Source: Escherichia phage vB_EcoM_WFbE185. Taken from it: a stretch of 64,000 bases of DNA. The first letter of the stretch is position 1; every line of letters starts with the position of its first letter. The position numbers were made by a program, and so were the translations under genes. The notes beneath the pieces are model-generated. The model had not been told where the DNA came from, did not search any database, and saw nothing but the letters and a program-made list of their open reading frames with translations. The stretch lies in the sequence record MK373778.1; one strand, written 5' to 3'. Below are positions 2,277 to 10,445 of this stretch, piece after piece.

Positions 2277-2517
2277 CTCGGTCCCATGATTTGGCCATTA
2301 ATTCGGACATAAATTCTTCAATGCGCGTTTCTTTAGATGGACTTTCACTATTAGAGACCGCAAGTTTGTAATCTGCAATAGGACAGAACATATCAAGGTC
2401 CATATTAAGGTCGTCTTTGATTTTTTCTTCTGACACATCTTTATCGTATGTGTACAGATAACTATCACATGATTCTGATTTAATGTAAATTGCTATACTC
2501 ATCTCAAATTCCTGCAT
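2266..2517 (-). CDS. hypothetical protein
   Basis: ORF track 83 aa; overlaps upstream ORF end, consistent with translational coupling. Confidence 0.6.
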   Translation of the reverse strand: MQEFEMSIAIYIKSESCDSYLYTYDKDVSEEKIKDDLNMDLDMFCPIADYKLAVSNSESPSKETRIEEFMSELMAKSWDRDDE

Positions 2518-2990
2518 TCGGTAATAAAACGTTCAACTTCATTATTCTTGGCCTTTATCTTGTCTTTACGTTCCTGTAAACTACTTTTAACAAGATTAAT
2601 AATGATGCCTACAGTACCTCCACCAATAATACCACCAATAATACTTACGATAGTAGATGCTAATAAGATAGCAATAATATCAACAAAACCGAAAGAACTC
2701 ACCTTAGTACTAAAAAACCATACCGACGGTACAAATATAATCCATCCTGTTATCCATTGGCACTTATTGAAAAACTTTTCAAGCTCAGCTTGAGTTGTTC
2801 GTATTACTTCATCGATAGGTTGATATCCGTTAATGTATCTGTTCACGATAATACCTGCTGGCTGGTCGATTTTAAATTCTTGGCAAATACGTTTAACTAA
2901 GTAGGATGGACATCCTGTCCAATCTACTGAATAGTATGAAATACCTTCGTTGCCATCGTCTATATTAGACCAATATGTTTTGTTAATCAT
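2499..2990 (-). CDS. hypothetical membrane protein (two predicted TM helices), C-terminal FITECR
   Basis: ORF track 163 aa; hydrophobic stretches WIIFVPSVWFF and IIAILLASTIVSIIGGIIGGG. Confidence 0.65.
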   Translation of the reverse strand: MINKTYWSNIDDGNEGISYYSVDWTGCPSYLVKRICQEFKIDQPAGIIVNRYINGYQPIDEVIRTTQAELEKFFNKCQWITGWIIFVPSVWFFSTKVSSFGFVDIIAILLASTIVSIIGGIIGGGTVGIIINLVKSSLQERKDKIKAKNNEVERFITECRNLR

Positions 2991-3677: not shown

Positions 3678-3983
3678 TTATTTTCCTCGACATTCTTTAA
3701 TGAAATTTTCTAGATTGGTAGATTCAATAGCTTTTTTACGAGCTTCTGCGTGTTCTTCTTCAGACAATTTACGTTTATAATTGACCCAGACATTATGGTC
3801 TAAACCGGTCGTGGCATATAATATCAAAGCTCCGACGAATAATAAAAACGGTGATAAAAATATACAACCAGGAACACCATCCATACTGTAAGCCTTTTGT
3901 AATACTGCAACAGAAAGAGCTGCGTAAAAAAGTGATGCAAATATTGTAAAAAGACCAATTCGGTTGGTTTCGCCTAATTTCAT
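3678..3983 (-). CDS. hypothetical small membrane protein, C-terminal FIKECR
   Basis: ORF track 101 aa; two hydrophobic helices; own early promoter. Confidence 0.7.
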   Translation of the reverse strand: MKLGETNRIGLFTIFASLFYAALSVAVLQKAYSMDGVPGCIFLSPFLLFVGALILYATTGLDHNVWVNYKRKLSEEEHAEARKKAIESTNLENFIKECRGK

Positions 3984-4011
3984 AATATTCTCCTCATGTT
4001 TTAATAGGACT

Positions 4012-4041
4012 ACTATAACATAGCCCTATAATTGTGTAAAC
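4012..4041 (-). promoter_or_regulatory. early promoter cassette (-35 GTTTAC, -10 TATAGT inside ataggact/agtcctat palindrome)
   Basis: minus GTTTACacaattatagggctatgtTATAGT, leader with GAGGAG before ATG 3983. Confidence 0.55.
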
Positions 4042-4053
4042 AGTTTTGTGAAG

Positions 4054-5010
4054 TTATTTGAAAGGTTTTACCATATGGAAATTTTGTTTGAAACGTTTTA
4101 CGTAATCGTCATGTCCTAAGCTTTGGTACATACTTACAACTTTGCTGTAGTTTTCCCAGGCGTATTCACGGAACCAACCGGAGGTGATGCTTGTGCAGAC
4201 TTTTTCTAATGCCATCATGAAACTGGCTTCAGGGTTAATTTTAAAGTCATTAGGAATCTGAGAACGTTCTAATGCTAGTACACATGATTCTTCATATACA
4301 CCGGCCAATTTGACCATTTCTGGTAACGATTCGAACTTCTCGCGTGAGGTCATGACTTCAGAACCGTCTTTCATATAAAATGTATACGCTGGGCGGTCTG
4401 TTAGCGCAATGGCTTCGTGAATAGTGTCATGGTCATATGTATAGATGTCATCTTTAAAGAACGCACTTTTAGAAGTGTCAAGAACTGGGTGAGCATAGTT
4501 CAAGGTTTCTTTCTGGCGTTTCAGCATAATTTCAGTAAGTTCATCGTTCAGTGTAACACCTTTACCACGAAGATACTGAATATGGTTCATAGTCTTTAAA
4601 AAGAATGGATTATTTTTCTTGAAACGATGAGACATCTTAATTGCAAGGCACATCTCAGGAGTCGCCCAGTAAAACCCGTTCAAACGGTCTTTAGACAAAT
4701 TTTTCTTGGCGTATTTTAAAAGGTCATAAGAAGACGTGAAATCTTCAGGAGTGAGTTCACCTACTAATTCACGGACATTAGTGATTGCCGGAACAATATA
4801 TGCTTCAAAATGAGTTTCGCGTCCATTATGGAAGCATTTGAAAACTTGGACATCAGGGTTATCTTGGTGAACATATACACCCATCATTTGATTTTTGAAT
4901 GCATTCCAAGAACATTGGTCCGCAATAAAGTCCCAATCACTATTTTTGATAGCGCTAGAATCAATAAGACCGTGATAGTGAAGTGCACGAGAACCAATAA
5001 CTAACATCAT
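4054..5010 (-). CDS. hypothetical protein, possible nucleotidyltransferase fold
   Basis: ORF track 318 aa; N-terminal IGSRALHYHGL...SDWDFIAD resembles GS...DxD of Pol-beta-type NTases (weak). Confidence 0.7.
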   Translation of the reverse strand: MMLVIGSRALHYHGLIDSSAIKNSDWDFIADQCSWNAFKNQMMGVYVHQDNPDVQVFKCFHNGRETHFEAYIVPAITNVRELVGELTPEDFTSSYDLLKYAKKNLSKDRLNGFYWATPEMCLAIKMSHRFKKNNPFFLKTMNHIQYLRGKGVTLNDELTEIMLKRQKETLNYAHPVLDTSKSAFFKDDIYTYDHDTIHEAIALTDRPAYTFYMKDGSEVMTSREKFESLPEMVKLAGVYEESCVLALERSQIPNDFKINPEASFMMALEKVCTSITSGWFREYAWENYSKVVSMYQSLGHDDYVKRFKQNFHMVKPFK

Positions 5011-5038
5011 AATATTTTCCTCGGATTAATTCATTAAC

Positions 5039-5278
5039 TTAAATTTCACGACATGCGATATTATATTCATCCCAGAGGTCAACATGTGAAGCCTCTACCA
5101 ATGGAACGATTGTACCGTTTATGTCTTCATTATAAGGGCAAATTGTACAGTGCGCATCTTCGAATCGGATGCCTTTATGTTCAGATTTTTTATAACGCAT
5201 ATCGAATATCTTTGCAAACTTTTCACGACTAATAGTTTTAGCAACTACTTCAGTTCCGATACTTTCGTAATAAATCAT
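5039..5278 (-). CDS. hypothetical protein
   Basis: ORF track 5039..5290; second ATG (MIYYES) has GGAG SD, first does not. Confidence 0.6.
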   Translation of the reverse strand: MIYYESIGTEVVAKTISREKFAKIFDMRYKKSEHKGIRFEDAHCTICPYNEDINGTIVPLVEASHVDLWDEYNIACREI

Positions 5279-5306
5279 TGTGGACTCCATTTAATTTGAT
5301 AGGACT

Positions 5307-5336
5307 ACTATAACATAGCCCTATCTTGTTGTAAAC
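5307..5336 (-). promoter_or_regulatory. early promoter cassette (GTTTAC / TATAGT in palindrome)
   Basis: same gataggactactataacatagccctatc cassette as at 4000. Confidence 0.55.
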
Positions 5337-5340
5337 TGTT

Positions 5341-5538
5341 TTAGCAAGAATAACTAGATGATACCCAGCCTTGAACAGTAATACTATTGTGGGATAATGA
5401 GATCGCGTCCTGGAGATTCAGACCTGCGTTATCTTCAATCCATAATGTAACTTCTTCGCGTTCTTCTGTTGCAATCTGGAACAGGTTTTCCAGAGCAGCT
5501 ACTGCGGTACGCACAGCACAATCTAATTCACGAGACAT
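5341..5538 (-). CDS. hypothetical protein, paralog family member (C-terminal GWVSSSYSC)
   Basis: ORF track 65 aa. Confidence 0.6.
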   Translation of the reverse strand: MSRELDCAVRTAVAALENLFQIATEEREEVTLWIEDNAGLNLQDAISLSHNSITVQGWVSSSYSC

Positions 5539-5547
5539 ATTGTTTCC

Positions 5548-5820
5548 TTAACAAGTGTGAGAAGATGCGACCCAACCACCAGTTTCGAGGCTCAAGTTGT
5601 AGTCGTATTGGTAAACGTCAGCCCATTCAGCATAGCCGTTTTTTGTACAACGTTCAAGATCAGCTTTAAGATGTCCGGGTGAATGATAGGTTCCACCCAT
5701 ACCATAAGCTGGGTACAAGTTGAATGTTGTGTTTTGTTTATCGGCAATTTCTTTGGCAGCCTCAATAGCTGCATAGATTTTTGCTACAGCTTCAGCCAGT
5801 TCGGTTTGTTCTTTAGACAT
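5548..5820 (-). CDS. hypothetical protein, paralog family member (C-terminal GWVASSHTC)
   Basis: ORF track 90 aa. Confidence 0.65.
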   Translation of the reverse strand: MSKEQTELAEAVAKIYAAIEAAKEIADKQNTTFNLYPAYGMGGTYHSPGHLKADLERCTKNGYAEWADVYQYDYNLSLETGGWVASSHTC

Positions 5821-5829
5821 AATGATTCC

Positions 5830-6135
5830 TTAGCACAACGCAGAAGACGAAACCCAAGCACCTTCAGTAATAACGTAACCATTACCTTCACGCTTAACAT
5901 CGCCACCATTATTTTCAATTTCATCTTTCATCCACTGGGATACGATTTCACCCTTAGGATAATAAGTACGACCGCTACCATAATCACCTACAGAAAATGA
6001 TACGGCATATTGGTCTGCGATCTTTGTTGCTTCTTCTTCGATACGTTCAGCTTGATTCAGAAGTTTATAAATTGCATCTGAAGCGGATTTGGCATCATTA
6101 AACTCTGGTACTTTAATTTCAATAATCTTACTCAT
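5830..6135 (-). CDS. hypothetical protein, paralog family member (C-terminal AWVSSSALC)
   Basis: ORF track 101 aa. Confidence 0.65.
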   Translation of the reverse strand: MSKIIEIKVPEFNDAKSASDAIYKLLNQAERIEEEATKIADQYAVSFSVGDYGSGRTYYPKGEIVSQWMKDEIENNGGDVKREGNGYVITEGAWVSSSALC

Positions 6136-6205
6136 TTTCTACATTCCTTAATAAAGTTTTCGATTGTTTCATTTTCACGTTTAGCTAGGAGTTCATTATA
6201 ACTAT

Positions 6206-6490
6206 TCATTTGAGAAGCGTAAACCCTTTTATTTTCTTGTTATGGTTTATAAAATCGTAGTAAAAATAGACTACAGTACAAAATGATGCGATTGATGCAA
6301 AGGCTTGAGTATATCGTAAGTCCTGCCACTGGTCTGTGAATCCACCAGTGTTCCCTATAAATCCTAACACAACGCCGTCAATAAGAAATCCAACTAATCC
6401 AAAGGCAAATCCCATGCCAATACTCATAATAAAAATTAGAATGTTCTCACCAAGAGAAGGCCATACGGTTAAGAGTTGAGGCTTTTGCAT
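6206..6490 (-). CDS. hypothetical small membrane protein
   Basis: ORF track 94 aa; hydrophobic core ILIFIMSIGMGFAFGLVGFLIDGVVLGFIG; start overlaps upstream ORF. Confidence 0.6.
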   Translation of the reverse strand: MQKPQLLTVWPSLGENILIFIMSIGMGFAFGLVGFLIDGVVLGFIGNTGGFTDQWQDLRYTQAFASIASFCTVVYFYYDFINHNKKIKGFTLLK

Positions 6491-6864
6491 CTTATTTCCT
6501 TAACGAATTCCATAGCTTCTTCATATTCATACTTTTTAACAGCTTCATCATACTGAGCTTGGGCTTTTGCGCACTGAACTTTCCATTCTCTTAATCGGGC
6601 TCTGTGATGACGGCCTTGGTGCCAATATCCTGCCCAATTAATAGGCATTAATAAAAATGGTACAATAAGTGGGGCGACGAACATTAATGAAAATGCTGCA
6701 TCAGACGATATAACTTTACTAGAATCTAAAACAGCTCCTATAATCATAAAGATTAAAAATGCTAAAGCTAAAATAGGGCCAAATAGTACTTCGTTTGGGA
6801 TTAATTTACGTTTGTATTCGTATGCCCAGGGCTTAATTGGCATGTACAGGGTTGGCTTTGACAT
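6469..6864 (-). CDS. hypothetical membrane protein, C-terminal EFVKEIRC
   Basis: ORF track 6469..6894 begins with TTG; first ATG at 6864 (MSKPTLY); two hydrophobic helices. Confidence 0.6.
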   Translation of the reverse strand: MSKPTLYMPIKPWAYEYKRKLIPNEVLFGPILALAFLIFMIIGAVLDSSKVISSDAAFSLMFVAPLIVPFLLMPINWAGYWHQGRHHRARLREWKVQCAKAQAQYDEAVKKYEYEEAMEFVKEIRCKSLNS

Positions 6865-7435
6865 ATTCTCTACATTCCATAATAAATTGCTCAAGGATTA
6901 AATTGTTAGTGAAATTAGGACTAACAACCATAGTTTCATAAAGCGCATCAATAGCACTTAAAGCATCAACTCTTTTAAGCAAAGGCTTGCCTTCATACAT
7001 AGTTTCAGAATCAACGATTAACGTAAAGTAATATTTTTTATTATCGACTAGAACTTCTGTGTCGATATAAAACATATTAGACCTCAGAAGCTTATCTCTA
7101 AAACCATAATAATCTTCTGAACGTTCGCTGATATATTCCCATTCAGTGTTTAAACAACAAACAGACCACGTAGGAGAAACGAAATCAGTGAATCTAATAT
7201 CATGGTCTGCAACTAGTTTAGCAATAGCTCCGATATCATGAATCATAATACCTGGGGCTAATAAAGATTTTCTGCTATGGCTAGCCGTTTTCTCAGTGGT
7301 CTCATAAGAAGCTGACCAGTACCATTTACGTCCGGTTGCAACATATCGTAATGAATCAACTAAAGACGTAGGTGGATTTACCTTATCTCGGAACTCTTCG
7401 AACATTGAGTCAATATCATTATTTTGGTTTCGCAT
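6833..7435 (-). CDS. hypothetical protein, C-terminal FIMECR
   Basis: ORF track 6833..7456 begins with TTG; ATG at 7435 preceded by AAAGGAG. Confidence 0.7.
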   Translation of the reverse strand: MRNQNNDIDSMFEEFRDKVNPPTSLVDSLRYVATGRKWYWSASYETTEKTASHSRKSLLAPGIMIHDIGAIAKLVADHDIRFTDFVSPTWSVCCLNTEWEYISERSEDYYGFRDKLLRSNMFYIDTEVLVDNKKYYFTLIVDSETMYEGKPLLKRVDALSAIDALYETMVVSPNFTNNLILEQFIMECREYVKANPVHAN

Positions 7436-7458: not shown

Positions 7459-7476
7459 GGAGGACCGGAGTCCTCC
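7459..7476 (-). terminator. intrinsic terminator hairpin after ORF 7485..8078
   Basis: ggaggaccggagtcctcc stem-loop followed by T-run on minus strand. Confidence 0.5.
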
Positions 7477-7484
7477 GTATTATT

Positions 7485-8078
7485 TTATTTCAAAGAGTTA
7501 ATATATTCTTGTACATCAGCAGAAGTGGTTTCGACACCGGCTAGAGTGCCATTAAACGTTTCAACACGAGTCAGAGTGTCTTCGATATCAACCTTAGTCA
7601 GTGCAGCGATTTCAATTACATCATCGGCTGTAGAGATACCAAGGGCATTGGCTGCTCGAGTTTCACGAATGTATTCGAGTTTGATTGCCAGGTTCTGACG
7701 AGCATCGTCAAGTTCAACCACCTTACGAGCAATTTCAATTCGCATAGCGGCATACCCGTCAGCTTTTGTATTAAGTTGTTCGGCAGTTCGACGATACAGA
7801 AGACCAAGCTTAGCATGCATGGTAACATCTTGTCCTTCGGCCAAGAGCTTACGAATTTCACGTTCCTTAGAAGCGGCTTGCTTATTCTTTTCAATAACAA
7901 GTTCGCGAATACGTTTTTCTTCATTAATAGATTTAACAGAGGCCGTTTTTAGTTCTTTGATTTGGGTAATCAACTTATCTGCAGCTGCGTTATACTGTTC
8001 TTCGACAGTCAGATTTTTAGCCATAGCAGTACCCAGTTTAGTGCGGATGAATTCAACAAGTTTCTTCAGTGTGTTCAT
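7485..8078 (-). CDS. hypothetical coiled-coil protein
   Basis: ORF track 7485..8120; ATG at 8078 (MNTLKKL); charged heptad-like sequence throughout. Confidence 0.7.
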
Positions 8079-8147
8079 ATTATTACCTTTCAATTGGTGG
8101 TTTATTATCCATGAGAGCATTATACTCTGCTCTCAAGAGTTTGTAAA

Positions 8148-8375
8148 TTATTTTTTAATCAAATTGACATAAAACTCTGCGTCTTCGGGGTGCATGCCTT
8201 CGCAGTATTCTTCAACCATGAACTTCTTAACGGCTTCATAAGGACCACTCAGATTAAGCTCAGTTGTCCAGAACTTGGAATCTTGTACTGAATCGATACG
8301 AACTTCAGGGTGACGGTTGCGAATAACTTCTTCTGTGTATTCATAATCAACGACATCAATACTAACTTTAGCCAT
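8148..8375 (-). CDS. hypothetical protein
   Basis: ORF track 75 aa; early promoter cassette and GAGGA upstream. Confidence 0.65.
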   Translation of the reverse strand: MAKVSIDVVDYEYTEEVIRNRHPEVRIDSVQDSKFWTTELNLSGPYEAVKKFMVEEYCEGMHPEDAEFYVNLIKK

Positions 8376-8403
8376 TTTGTTTTCCTCTTGATTTGATAGG
8401 ACT

Positions 8404-8433
8404 ACTATAACATAAACTTACTTAGATGTAAAT
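8404..8433 (-). promoter_or_regulatory. early promoter cassette (ATTTAC / TATAGT in palindrome)
   Basis: gataggactactataacat motif upstream of ORF 8148..8375. Confidence 0.45.
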
Positions 8434-8586
8434 TATTTCAACGTCACCTTTAGCTGCTTTATAACCTTCAGCCCAAGATACAACAGAGTTTTTATCTGAG
8501 GATTCAAATTCAGGCATTGGACTTTCACCAATATTCACACAGTATGTTTCTTCATTTTCATCGAACCAAATAATTAAAGTAGTCAT
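8422..8586 (-). CDS. hypothetical small protein (54 aa), not in ORF track
   Basis: hand translation MTTLIIWFDENEETYCVNIGESPMPEFESSDKNSVVSWAEGYKAAKGDVEIIYI; GAGGAG SD and early promoter upstream. Confidence 0.45.
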   Translation of the reverse strand: MTTLIIWFDENEETYCVNIGESPMPEFESSDKNSVVSWAEGYKAAKGDVEIIYI

Positions 8587-8654: not shown

Positions 8655-8960
8655 TTAATTTTTCCAACTTAACAACTTGTAGTGTCCTTCATTCGTACGA
8701 GGTTTATCCCAAGAAATACTAATATATGATTCGCTATCAATAGAAGTCGCCGGGTTTTTCTCTACCGTAAGACCTTCACTTTCCAGCCATTCAATAGTAT
8801 TTGCGCATAAATCTGAAGAACACCTCATCGGAAACCGGCAAGATTTTTCACCTTTAGCTGCAGTGTTATACATCTTTTCTAAAATACGCTTTTGCACGTT
8901 TTTAAAAATAGTTTCAGCAGATTCTTCAGATTTTTTATTCAGTTCAGTGTAAAGACTCAT
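8655..8960 (-). CDS. hypothetical protein
   Basis: ORF track 101 aa; early promoter upstream. Confidence 0.65.
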   Translation of the reverse strand: MSLYTELNKKSEESAETIFKNVQKRILEKMYNTAAKGEKSCRFPMRCSSDLCANTIEWLESEGLTVEKNPATSIDSESYISISWDKPRTNEGHYKLLSWKN

Positions 8961-8988
8961 AATATTTTCCTCTGTAGTTGATAAGTCT

Positions 8989-9017
8989 ATAATATCATGC
9001 CCTTAGAAGAAGTAAAC
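8989..9017 (-). promoter_or_regulatory. early promoter (-35 GTTTAC, 17 nt, -10 TATTAT)
   Basis: minus GTTTACttcttctaagggcatgaTATTAT then conserved leader. Confidence 0.5.
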
Positions 9018-10288: not shown

Positions 10289-10365
<77 letters not shown>

Positions 10366-10371
10366 AATATA

Positions 10372-10445
10372 TGACCCAGACCAGATTCGAACTGGTAACC
10401 TTTCCCTTATGAGGGGACTGCTGCTAACCATTGAGCTACAGGGCC
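10372..10445 (-). tRNA. tRNA with anticodon CAU (Met or Ile2 type)
   Basis: T-arm ACCAG-TTCGAAT-CTGGT, acceptor GGCCCTG/CTGGGTC with one mismatch, anticodon loop CTCATAA; D and anticodon stems imperfect. Confidence 0.5.

Follow-up and report, generated by a model that had tools for sequence, protein, structure and literature searches.

Genes e.4 and e.3 of an RB69-like phage as tandem paralogs by profile similarity and candidate independent, cytoplasm-facing membrane modules

By sequence, the two small overlapping genes at 6469..6864 and 6206..6490 on the minus strand of the window (the whole 64-kb stretch of DNA that was analysed) are genes e.4 and e.3 of T4 and RB69, and profile comparison identifies them as tandem full-length paralogs. 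Our best account, which we hold with moderate confidence, is that they belong to a T-even paralog family of independent, membrane-anchored binding modules facing the cytoplasm, and that the e.3 of the window is a truncated allele. An earlier note on this DNA had proposed a coupled two-component membrane module instead. Coupling may well hold, but the paralogy of the two genes, their separate occurrence and the truncation of e.3 argue against an obligate module.

Both ORFs start with ATG and encode 131 aa (e.4) and 94 aa (truncated e.3). Their common stretch, 6469..6490, is exactly the 22-nt overlap of two minus-strand ORFs that had been reported before. RB69-like coliphages of the genus Mosigvirus match the window at 97-98% identity, and by this similarity the window is that of a Mosigvirus, i.e. 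an RB69-like T-even phage. According to the annotation tables, both genes occupy the same position and strand in T4 and RB69, with the same overlaps; in the RB69 and T4T tables e.4 stands directly after e.5 and ahead of e.3 on one strand, within the tRNA-e accessory region. The T4 genes (UniProt P39222 for e.4 and P32274 for e.3) and the RB69 genes (AAP76043 and AAP76042), labelled 'conserved hypothetical, predicted membrane proteins', are orthologs of like architecture, with e.5 on one side and the genes towards nudE/e on the other. The e.4 and e.3 of the window are thus previously annotated genes and not new ones.

At the protein level e.4 is about 97% identical to its RB69 counterpart and 48-54% identical to those of T4-type phages, while the identity of e.3 to T4-type phages is 35-39%. 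The GenBank entry for RB69 e.4 starts at M8; conservation favours M1, and we take M1 as the start because the N-terminus is conserved across genera. The e.4 protein matches PHROG 2604 over residues 1-130 (E 4e-63) and e.3 matches PHROG 2330 over profile positions 1-91 of 122 (E 5e-33). All close e.4 homologs in the protein database carry the precomputed label PF26873.

A tblastn search of phage records found e.4 in 643 and e.3 in 701 records, T-even types throughout; in 637 of the e.4 records the match covers 99-100% of the query at 48-99% identity. An exhaustive HMM search with the e.4 profile against 1.84 billion representatives returned 9 hits, all from one and the same family; the library carries no annotation, and three new, distant hits were placed in the e.4 family by sequence and layout. 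By these searches the e.4/e.3 family is narrow yet real and confined to T-even-type phages of enterobacteria. The dN/dS values range from 0.12 to 0.52 for e.4 and from 0.04 to 0.64 for e.3, compared with 0.01-0.20 for the neighbouring gene e.6, a pattern of purifying selection that is relaxed relative to e.6. The tblastn spread, the dN/dS values and the protein classes assigned by T4 proteomics together indicate that e.4 and e.3 are genes and not chance ORFs.

Searches of Pfam (a copy without PF26873), NCBIfam and PADLOC gave nothing meaningful for e.4, e.3, e.5, e.6, e.2 or ORF133c. Sequence profiles of the PDB gave chance matches only for e.4, e.3 and e.6 (E >0.4), and a Foldseek comparison of the e.4 model with the PDB gave no match below E 4. 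In BFVD, fold matches had good scores only for orthologs and paralogs. We found no functional study of e.3 or e.4 in the literature. Since exhaustive sequence searches gave no characterised relative, the function of the two proteins has to be approached by inference alone.

The earlier note had called both products small membrane proteins, and the predicted hairpin, the positive-inside charge, the helical models and the annotation of T4 and RB69 all agree with this prediction. In e.4, hydrophobic segments at about residues 24-48 and 54-81 reach 19-residue Kyte-Doolittle means of up to 2.67 and 2.25, and the tail that follows them holds 11 K/R and 8 D/E, in line with the two hydrophobic helices and basic tail previously ascribed to it. 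For e.3 a single long hydrophobic segment had been described. The long stretch is there, at about residues 13-46 (KD up to 2.33), but it is not the only one: a weaker stretch at 63-81 (KD 1.41) had gone uncounted and corresponds to TM2 according to AlphaFold and to more hydrophobic orthologs.

AF2 models of the monomers (pTM <0.5) place helices at 24-48, 54-62 and 64-130 in e.4 (pLDDT 85.4) and at 13-44, 51-56 and 59-118 in intact e.3 (pLDDT 79). Topology prediction gives each protein two TM helices with both termini predicted cytoplasmic. The K/R counts of N-tail, loop and C-tail are 5/1/11 in e.4 and 1/0/9 in e.3, and therefore both ends of each protein should be cytoplasmic. The predicted layout of e.4 consists of a short cytoplasmic N-tail with a conserved Y-x-P-x-K-P motif, TM1 (about 24-48), a periplasmic loop of 5-7 residues and TM2 (about 54-81), which runs on as a predicted cytoplasmic helix to about residue 130; the protein ends in EFVKEIRC. 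For e.4 and e.3 alike, the models predict a TM hairpin whose second helix would extend by about 35-50 residues into the cytoplasm.

Conservation is distributed unevenly along this layout. Column entropy in e.4 is 0.69 in the N-tail, 0.82 in the juxtamembrane stretch and 0.67 in the tail motif, compared with 1.60 in TM1 and 1.92 in the loop, and within the juxtamembrane stretch R-x-R...W...C the residues R88, R90, W94 and C98 are invariant. The trend in e.3 is alike. This pattern suggests partners in the cytoplasm and makes the hairpin a putative anchor.

Evidence for a common origin of the two genes comes from profile-profile comparison. With small alignments, hhalign matched e.4 to e.3 over 110 columns at E 9e-7, while reversed-sequence controls for the hydrophobic composition gave E 0.13-0.17; with deeper alignments the match covered 113 columns, from residue 1 through to the tail (E 2.1e-7, probability 93.6%). 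Both proteins share a common start, M-[SQ]-K-P-x-L, and a common end, F-[VI]-K-E-x-R, and in BFVD the e.3 and e.4 families rank among each other's top fold matches.

Two further genes nearby on the minus strand of the window belong to the same family by profile similarity. The RB69ORF133c-like paralog (3678..3983, 101 aa) is built of two TM helices and one cytoplasmic helix and ends in ENFIKECRGK. Gene e.2 (2499..2990, 163 aa, RB69 annotation), which ends in ERFITECRNLR, has an N-terminal soluble domain followed by a TM region and helix paralogous to those of e.3 and ORF133c. The C-terminal half of e.2 matches ORF133c over 88 columns (hhalign E 4e-7), e.3 matches e.2 at E 2e-6, and ORF133c matches e.3 in its tail portion at E 4e-6; controls for the comparisons with ORF133c and e.2 gave E 0.002-0.007. 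The two genes resemble e.4 and e.3 in their hairpin-plus-helix layout and C-terminal tail. They differ from them in that e.2 is extended at its N-terminus by a soluble domain of about 75 residues, and ORF133c does not have the N-tail motif Y-x-P-S-K-P of e.4. In a natural chimera, P0115, the first 32 residues of e.4 are followed in register by the C-terminal half of e.2. The e.4 of the window has every feature by which the family is defined, namely a two-TM hairpin, a helix, an F-[IV]-x-E-[C/x]-[RK] end and end-to-end profile similarity, while its e.3 retains only the hairpin part.

A tail of the form F-[IV]-x-E-[C]-R-[K] closes five adjacent genes, namely soluble e.5 as well as e.4, e.3, ORF133c and e.2. 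In an RB69-type genome, for which L015, L016, the window and L017 were combined, the C-terminal motif is confined to the e.5-e.2 cluster. It is present in Tequatro-, Mosig-, Dhaka- and Gapriverviruses, and a looser [FW]-[IV]-x-x-C-[RK] tail is borne by the gene or genes after e.6 in Klebsiella phage JD18, Yersinia phage phiR1-RT, Aeromonas phage phiAS4 and Citrobacter phage Margaery. In the 'e.5-position' proteins of different genera, BLASTP similarity is limited to this tail.

Across the 8 genera that it spans, the tail is written with synonymous codon changes (AGA/AGG/CGA/CGC/CGT, TGT/TGC, TTT/TTC), and copies in phiAS4 and in JD18 (at L018:7168) have no abutting start codon. Because the codons vary synonymously and some copies do without an abutting start, selection appears to act on the tail peptide. 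In most cases the K-E codons (AAGGAA) also provide the following gene with its Shine-Dalgarno sequence, so that conservation of the tail could be partly at the RNA level. The codon variation and the copies that no start codon follows rule out, as sole cause of the motif, a function as ribosome-binding site for the following gene or as site of DNA recombination. The simplest reading would be that the shared tail is a common docking peptide. A more elaborate form, in which the tail, written [FW]-[IV]-x-x-C-[RK]-[RK], would link membrane hairpins and unrelated soluble proteins encoded directly after e.6 to one hub (e.6 or a single host factor) and a changeable set of adaptors would tie that hub to the inner membrane, is tentative and in our judgement rather improbable.

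The e.3 of the window departs from its relatives at 6232..6235 (minus strand), where a run of four A stands in place of the five found in relatives, with an A-to-G change beside the run. The 1-nt deletion is seen in the DNA alignment with RB69 and L004, the BLAST gap list of the window against RB69 agrees, and every 371-nt e.3 match in the phage collection spans 372 nt. Intact e.3, as found in RB69 and most other Mosigvirus records, has 119 aa. In the window, residues 1-86, TM1 and TM2 included, are those of RB69 e.3; the frame then shifts, residues 87-94 (IKGFTLLK) are out of the native frame, and translation stops at 6206, with the loss of the last 33 native residues. The 94-aa ORF described by the earlier note thus exists, but as an allele truncated by a 1-nt deletion and not as the native full-length protein. 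It is similar to the PHROG 2330 family and lacks the complete helix and FIKECRK tail of that family. In our look-up no other contig on record had the exact 94-aa product.

The lost C-terminus survives out of frame on the same strand as a 25-codon remnant at 6132..6209, MNSYNELLAKRENETIENFIKECRK, whose residues 4-25 equal RB69 e.3 residues 98-119 (position 2 is N vs I). Its ATG overlaps the stop of truncated e.3 (ATGA), and its stop overlaps the ATG of the next gene. Over 9 kb of the window compared with RB69 there is almost no further uncompensated coding indel. One such indel lies on the RB69 side: it splits ORF138c/139c there, an ORF left whole in the window. The A4 run could be a homopolymer sequencing error instead of a real mutation, in which case e.3 would be intact. 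As sequenced, e.3 has no cytoplasmic helix and its product is probably inactive or altered; e.4 is intact. Programmed frameshifting at the A-run was considered and rejected: relatives are in frame and a slippery heptamer in the right frame is absent. Among T4-type phages, 97-aa truncations of e.3 occur at the same lysine/A-run position and represent at least two separate events.

Both genes lie in a string of minus-strand genes that begins with e.6 (7485..8078), the first gene of the transcription unit, which is 72-88% identical across four genera and present in 1101 phage records. Next is e.5 (6833..7435), a soluble 200-aa protein by RB69 annotation (PHROG 2607) with the tail QFIMECREY.... 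Upstream of e.6, a consensus scan found a sigma-70 promoter-like site of early type at 8119..8147 on the minus strand (TTTACA-17-TATAAT, 11/12), which is the probable start of an e.6-e.5-e.4-e.3 transcript. Between e.6 and e.5, a terminator-like scan found a GC-rich hairpin with a T-run after it (7459..7476, minus strand). The transcription unit is flanked by repeated 66-nt early-promoter cassettes, and a search of the region with Rfam gave two tRNAs at 10292-10445 and nothing else. A guess from the length and helical coiled-coil look of e.6, that it might be PspA/ESCRT-III-like, was dropped for want of sequence support.

In T4, proteomics detected both the e.4 and the e.3 protein (PMC9697503). 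Genes e.4 and e.5 are early in RNA and protein, e.3 has early RNA and a late protein class, and e.2 and e.6 have early RNA and a middle protein class (PMC9697503, supplementary files 4 and 6). A CRISPRi-ART screen of T4 scored e.2-e.8 as 'Not Fit', meaning knock-down without a fitness defect (PMC11879866, supplementary file 15). Those negatives are weak, because the lysozyme gene e was likewise 'Not Fit' (PMC11879866).

We considered whether e.4 and e.3 form an obligate hetero-oligomer made in a fixed ratio because the 22-nt overlap couples their translation. The overlap is real and comes with an internal Shine-Dalgarno sequence, AAGGA, 6 nt ahead of the e.3 ATG; e.4 and e.3 are neighbours in Tequatro-, Mosig- and Gapriverviruses; and the long helices, with their heptad-like hydrophobic seam, could pair. 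Overlaps, however, run along the entire gene string (32 nt between e.5 and e.4, ATGA between the e.3 remnant and the next gene), so the 22-nt overlap is not peculiar to this pair, and at the e.4/e.3 junction its length varies by genus (22, 19, 14 and 44 nt). Translation of the e.5-e.4-e.3 run may well be coupled. A 239-nt deletion that destroys e.3 is found in about 30 of 139 Mosigvirus records (~22%); PTE-Eco05 combines it with a stop codon in e.4 and is thus damaged in both genes, as a hetero-oligomer would have it, but L003 has the deletion and an intact e.4. In the Dhakaviruses IME341 and IME540, e.4 is missing and e.3 follows e.5 directly. Because of the e.3 deletion alleles and of the Dhakaviruses without e.4, we conclude that neither gene needs the other. 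The truncation of e.3 in the window and the different protein classes in T4, e.4 early and e.3 late (PMC9697503), also go against a fixed-ratio complex, which we regard as unlikely.

Other rivals concern what the proteins do. A specific form of our best account, that they are anti-defence or host-takeover effectors against membrane-associated host systems, is possible, and we would not put it higher than that. Early expression and laboratory dispensability in T4 fit it, as do fast evolution, frequent loss, chimeras and copy-number change, which are typical of accessory host-range genes. The genes ipI, 57B and vs.4 are present in the annotation tables, and the T4 counter-defence genes ipI, 57B/acb1 and vs.4/acb2, which we take to be located in this part of the genome, would make a suitable neighbourhood. 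On the other side, homology to characterised anti-defence proteins is absent, no host-dependent phenotype is known, and the PADLOC scan, whose library consists of defence and not counter-defence proteins, was empty. Superinfection exclusion, suggested by the earlier note, would have e.4 and e.3 alter the inner membrane against DNA uptake from a second phage in the manner of T4 Imm (83 aa), which is likewise a small, early protein with two hydrophobic helices encoded by a T-even accessory gene. Imm, though, does not have the long cytoplasmic helix or the FIKECRK tail, and it is encoded elsewhere and present additionally, imm and sp already being found in RB69. Comparison by hhalign of e.4, e.3, ORF133c and e.2 with T4 Imm, Imm.1 and Sp gave only short TM matches (E 0.002-0.7), and on the hhalign comparison we dropped the idea of homology with Imm, Imm.1, Sp or gp40. 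The periplasmic loop is thought to be the active part in Imm, and by analogy the short periplasmic loop of e.4 and e.3 could be theirs, but their conserved residues are predicted to be cytoplasmic and the loop is their most variable segment. The two genes are also often lost in nature, and we consider an exclusion function quite unlikely.

The earlier note had also raised holin- or antiholin-like regulation, here of the nearby lysozyme gene e, and this now looks highly improbable. The two proteins resemble class II holins and pinholins such as S21 of phage 21 in small size, two TM helices, an N-in/C-in topology and a charged C-terminus, to which can be added the two Met codons (M1 and M8) of Mosigvirus e.4 and a position 4.7 kb upstream of e, whose strand they share. 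Unlike class II holins, however, e.4 and e.3 have a much longer C-terminal helix with a conserved motif and are not beside the endolysin gene, several unrelated genes separating the pair from e. M8 is a Leu in T4-type e.4 and in Gaprivervirus (MR--TLYLPSKP), so there is no conserved dual start. The T, RI and RIII proteins already explain T-even lysis; their genes t, rI and rIII are present in RB69-type genomes, and since T4 t mutants do not lyse, no second holin operates in T4. Expression is likewise early and not late with the endolysin: the T4 mRNAs and the e.4 protein are early (PMC9697503), and the site upstream of the unit in the window is only of the early type. Several GenBank/RefSeq records name e.3 and e.4 homologs sulfurtransferases, and the C-R-K of the tail is reminiscent of the rhodanese active-site loop. 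The same label, though, sits on two different proteins, no Pfam or NCBIfam match appears even at E<=10 or E<=1, and the models are all-helical membrane hairpins and not the alpha/beta rhodanese fold; we give this label next to no credence.

We return to the preferred account of independent, membrane-anchored modules. Because the hairpin and loop vary while the N-tail, juxtamembrane stretch and C-tail are conserved, each protein most likely acts alone as a cytoplasm-facing module. The TM hairpin would anchor the module, and those three conserved parts would face a partner. Early in infection, such a module may bring in, or obstruct, a partner in the cytoplasm or close to the membrane, a role that would make it a host-interaction accessory and not a lysis protein.

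As genes, e.4 and e.3 are ordinary: annotated T-even ORFs that T4 can spare in the laboratory and that are frequently lost among natural phages. Out of the ordinary is only the C-terminal tail shared across the cluster, which may mark a common site of docking. What is new is descriptive, namely that by sequence comparison they are paralogs and not partners, that their conserved surface is predicted to be cytoplasmic, and that they belong to a set of proteins with one C-terminal tail, found only in the run of genes that follows e.6. Work on e.3 and e.4 also corrects a spreading 'sulfurtransferase' misannotation. If the hub reading were true, e.4 and e.3 would be two interchangeable anchors of one unrecognised early phage system, and a tail that serves as a docking signal would offer an experimental entry to several T4 e.x genes together.

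Five adjacent genes on the minus strand of the window end in a common C-terminal tail, F-[IV]-x-E-C-R-K, which has the looser form [FW]-[IV]-x-x-C-[RK]. The motif lies within e.2 (2511-2528), the ORF133c-like gene (3687-3704), the out-of-frame e.3 remnant (6135-6155), e.4 (6490-6507) and e.5 (6869-6886). Across T4-like phages of eight genera, the genes that lie downstream of e.6 share this ending, among them ones encoding otherwise unrelated proteins, and the motif was also located in the comparison sequences L002, L006, L007, L011, L012 and L018-L021. Elsewhere in an RB69-type genome, C-termini do not carry the motif. An unannotated ORF of Yersinia phage phiR1-RT (L019, about 4930-5230), placed between the annotated genes g130 and g129, ends ...AFKDFISECRGR and has at least 98 open codons upstream of the motif.

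Directly downstream of e.3, three consecutive small soluble proteins (minus strand, 5830-6135, 5548-5820 and 5341-5538) share a different ending, W-V-[SA]-S-S-x-x-C, which is found again in phiR1-RT (L019 5559-6300). Two of the three match PHROG 899. These proteins form a second set of tandem paralogs, marked by a C-terminal signature of their own. The first, 5830..6135, is an intact 101-aa ORF of which GenBank RB69ORF138c and RB69ORF139c are the two halves; RB69 (L001 6831-7137) has one extra base in this split ORF relative to window position about 5931.

The window also contains repeated cassettes of about 66 nt (3981-4046, 5276-5341 and 8373-8438; also 8957-8998) that are 76% identical, each with an early-promoter-like TTTACA-17-TATAGT, a SD and a start codon on the minus strand. 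In this they are similar to PeSLs, the mobile promoter cassettes known from T4-type phages (PMC2839356, PMC4122927).

The gene e.6 (7485-8078) is far better conserved than the adjoining genes, with 72-88% identity between four genera and a dN/dS of 0.01-0.20, and is present in 1101 phage records, among them Klebsiella, Aeromonas and Citrobacter phages. Some records name it 'host specificity protein'; family, PDB and literature searches gave no assignment. Homologs of both e.3 and e.4 are named 'sulfurtransferase' in GenBank/RefSeq (matches H4, H6, H71 and H115; proteins P0004, P0013, P0033 and P0117), with some of the entries listed under the names of bacterial species. This name looks like a propagated misannotation because neither profile nor fold supports a sulfurtransferase identity.

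Truncation of e.3 has occurred repeatedly, in different lineages, at one juxtamembrane lysine/A-run: in the window (6232-6235) and, through at least two distinct events, in T4-type phages (database proteins P0170, P0174, P0176 and P0178; 97 aa). This recurrence could reflect either a mutational hot spot or repeated homopolymer sequencing errors. In about 30 of 139 Mosigvirus records (roughly a fifth), a 239-nt deletion removes the entire TM part of e.3 (L003 3375-3420; also L005, PTE-Eco05), and PTE-Eco05 additionally has a premature stop in e.4 (INWV*). The deletion of e.3 in Escherichia phage vB_EcoM-UFV05 is accompanied by a natural in-frame chimera (P0115; match H65), labelled PF26873+PF26896, that joins e.4 residues 1-32 to the C-terminal half of e.2.

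Dhakaviruses are without e.4 (L006 1972-2854 and L011 3903-4785, compared with L007 and L012). The Dhakavirus e.5 C-terminus, ...FIAECREYAKEVQNGTA, looks like an e.5 tail to which the last residues of Gaprivervirus e.4 (...KEVRNGTA) have been fused. Such an apparent fusion suggests that e.4 was lost or gained via recombination between the repeated gene ends.
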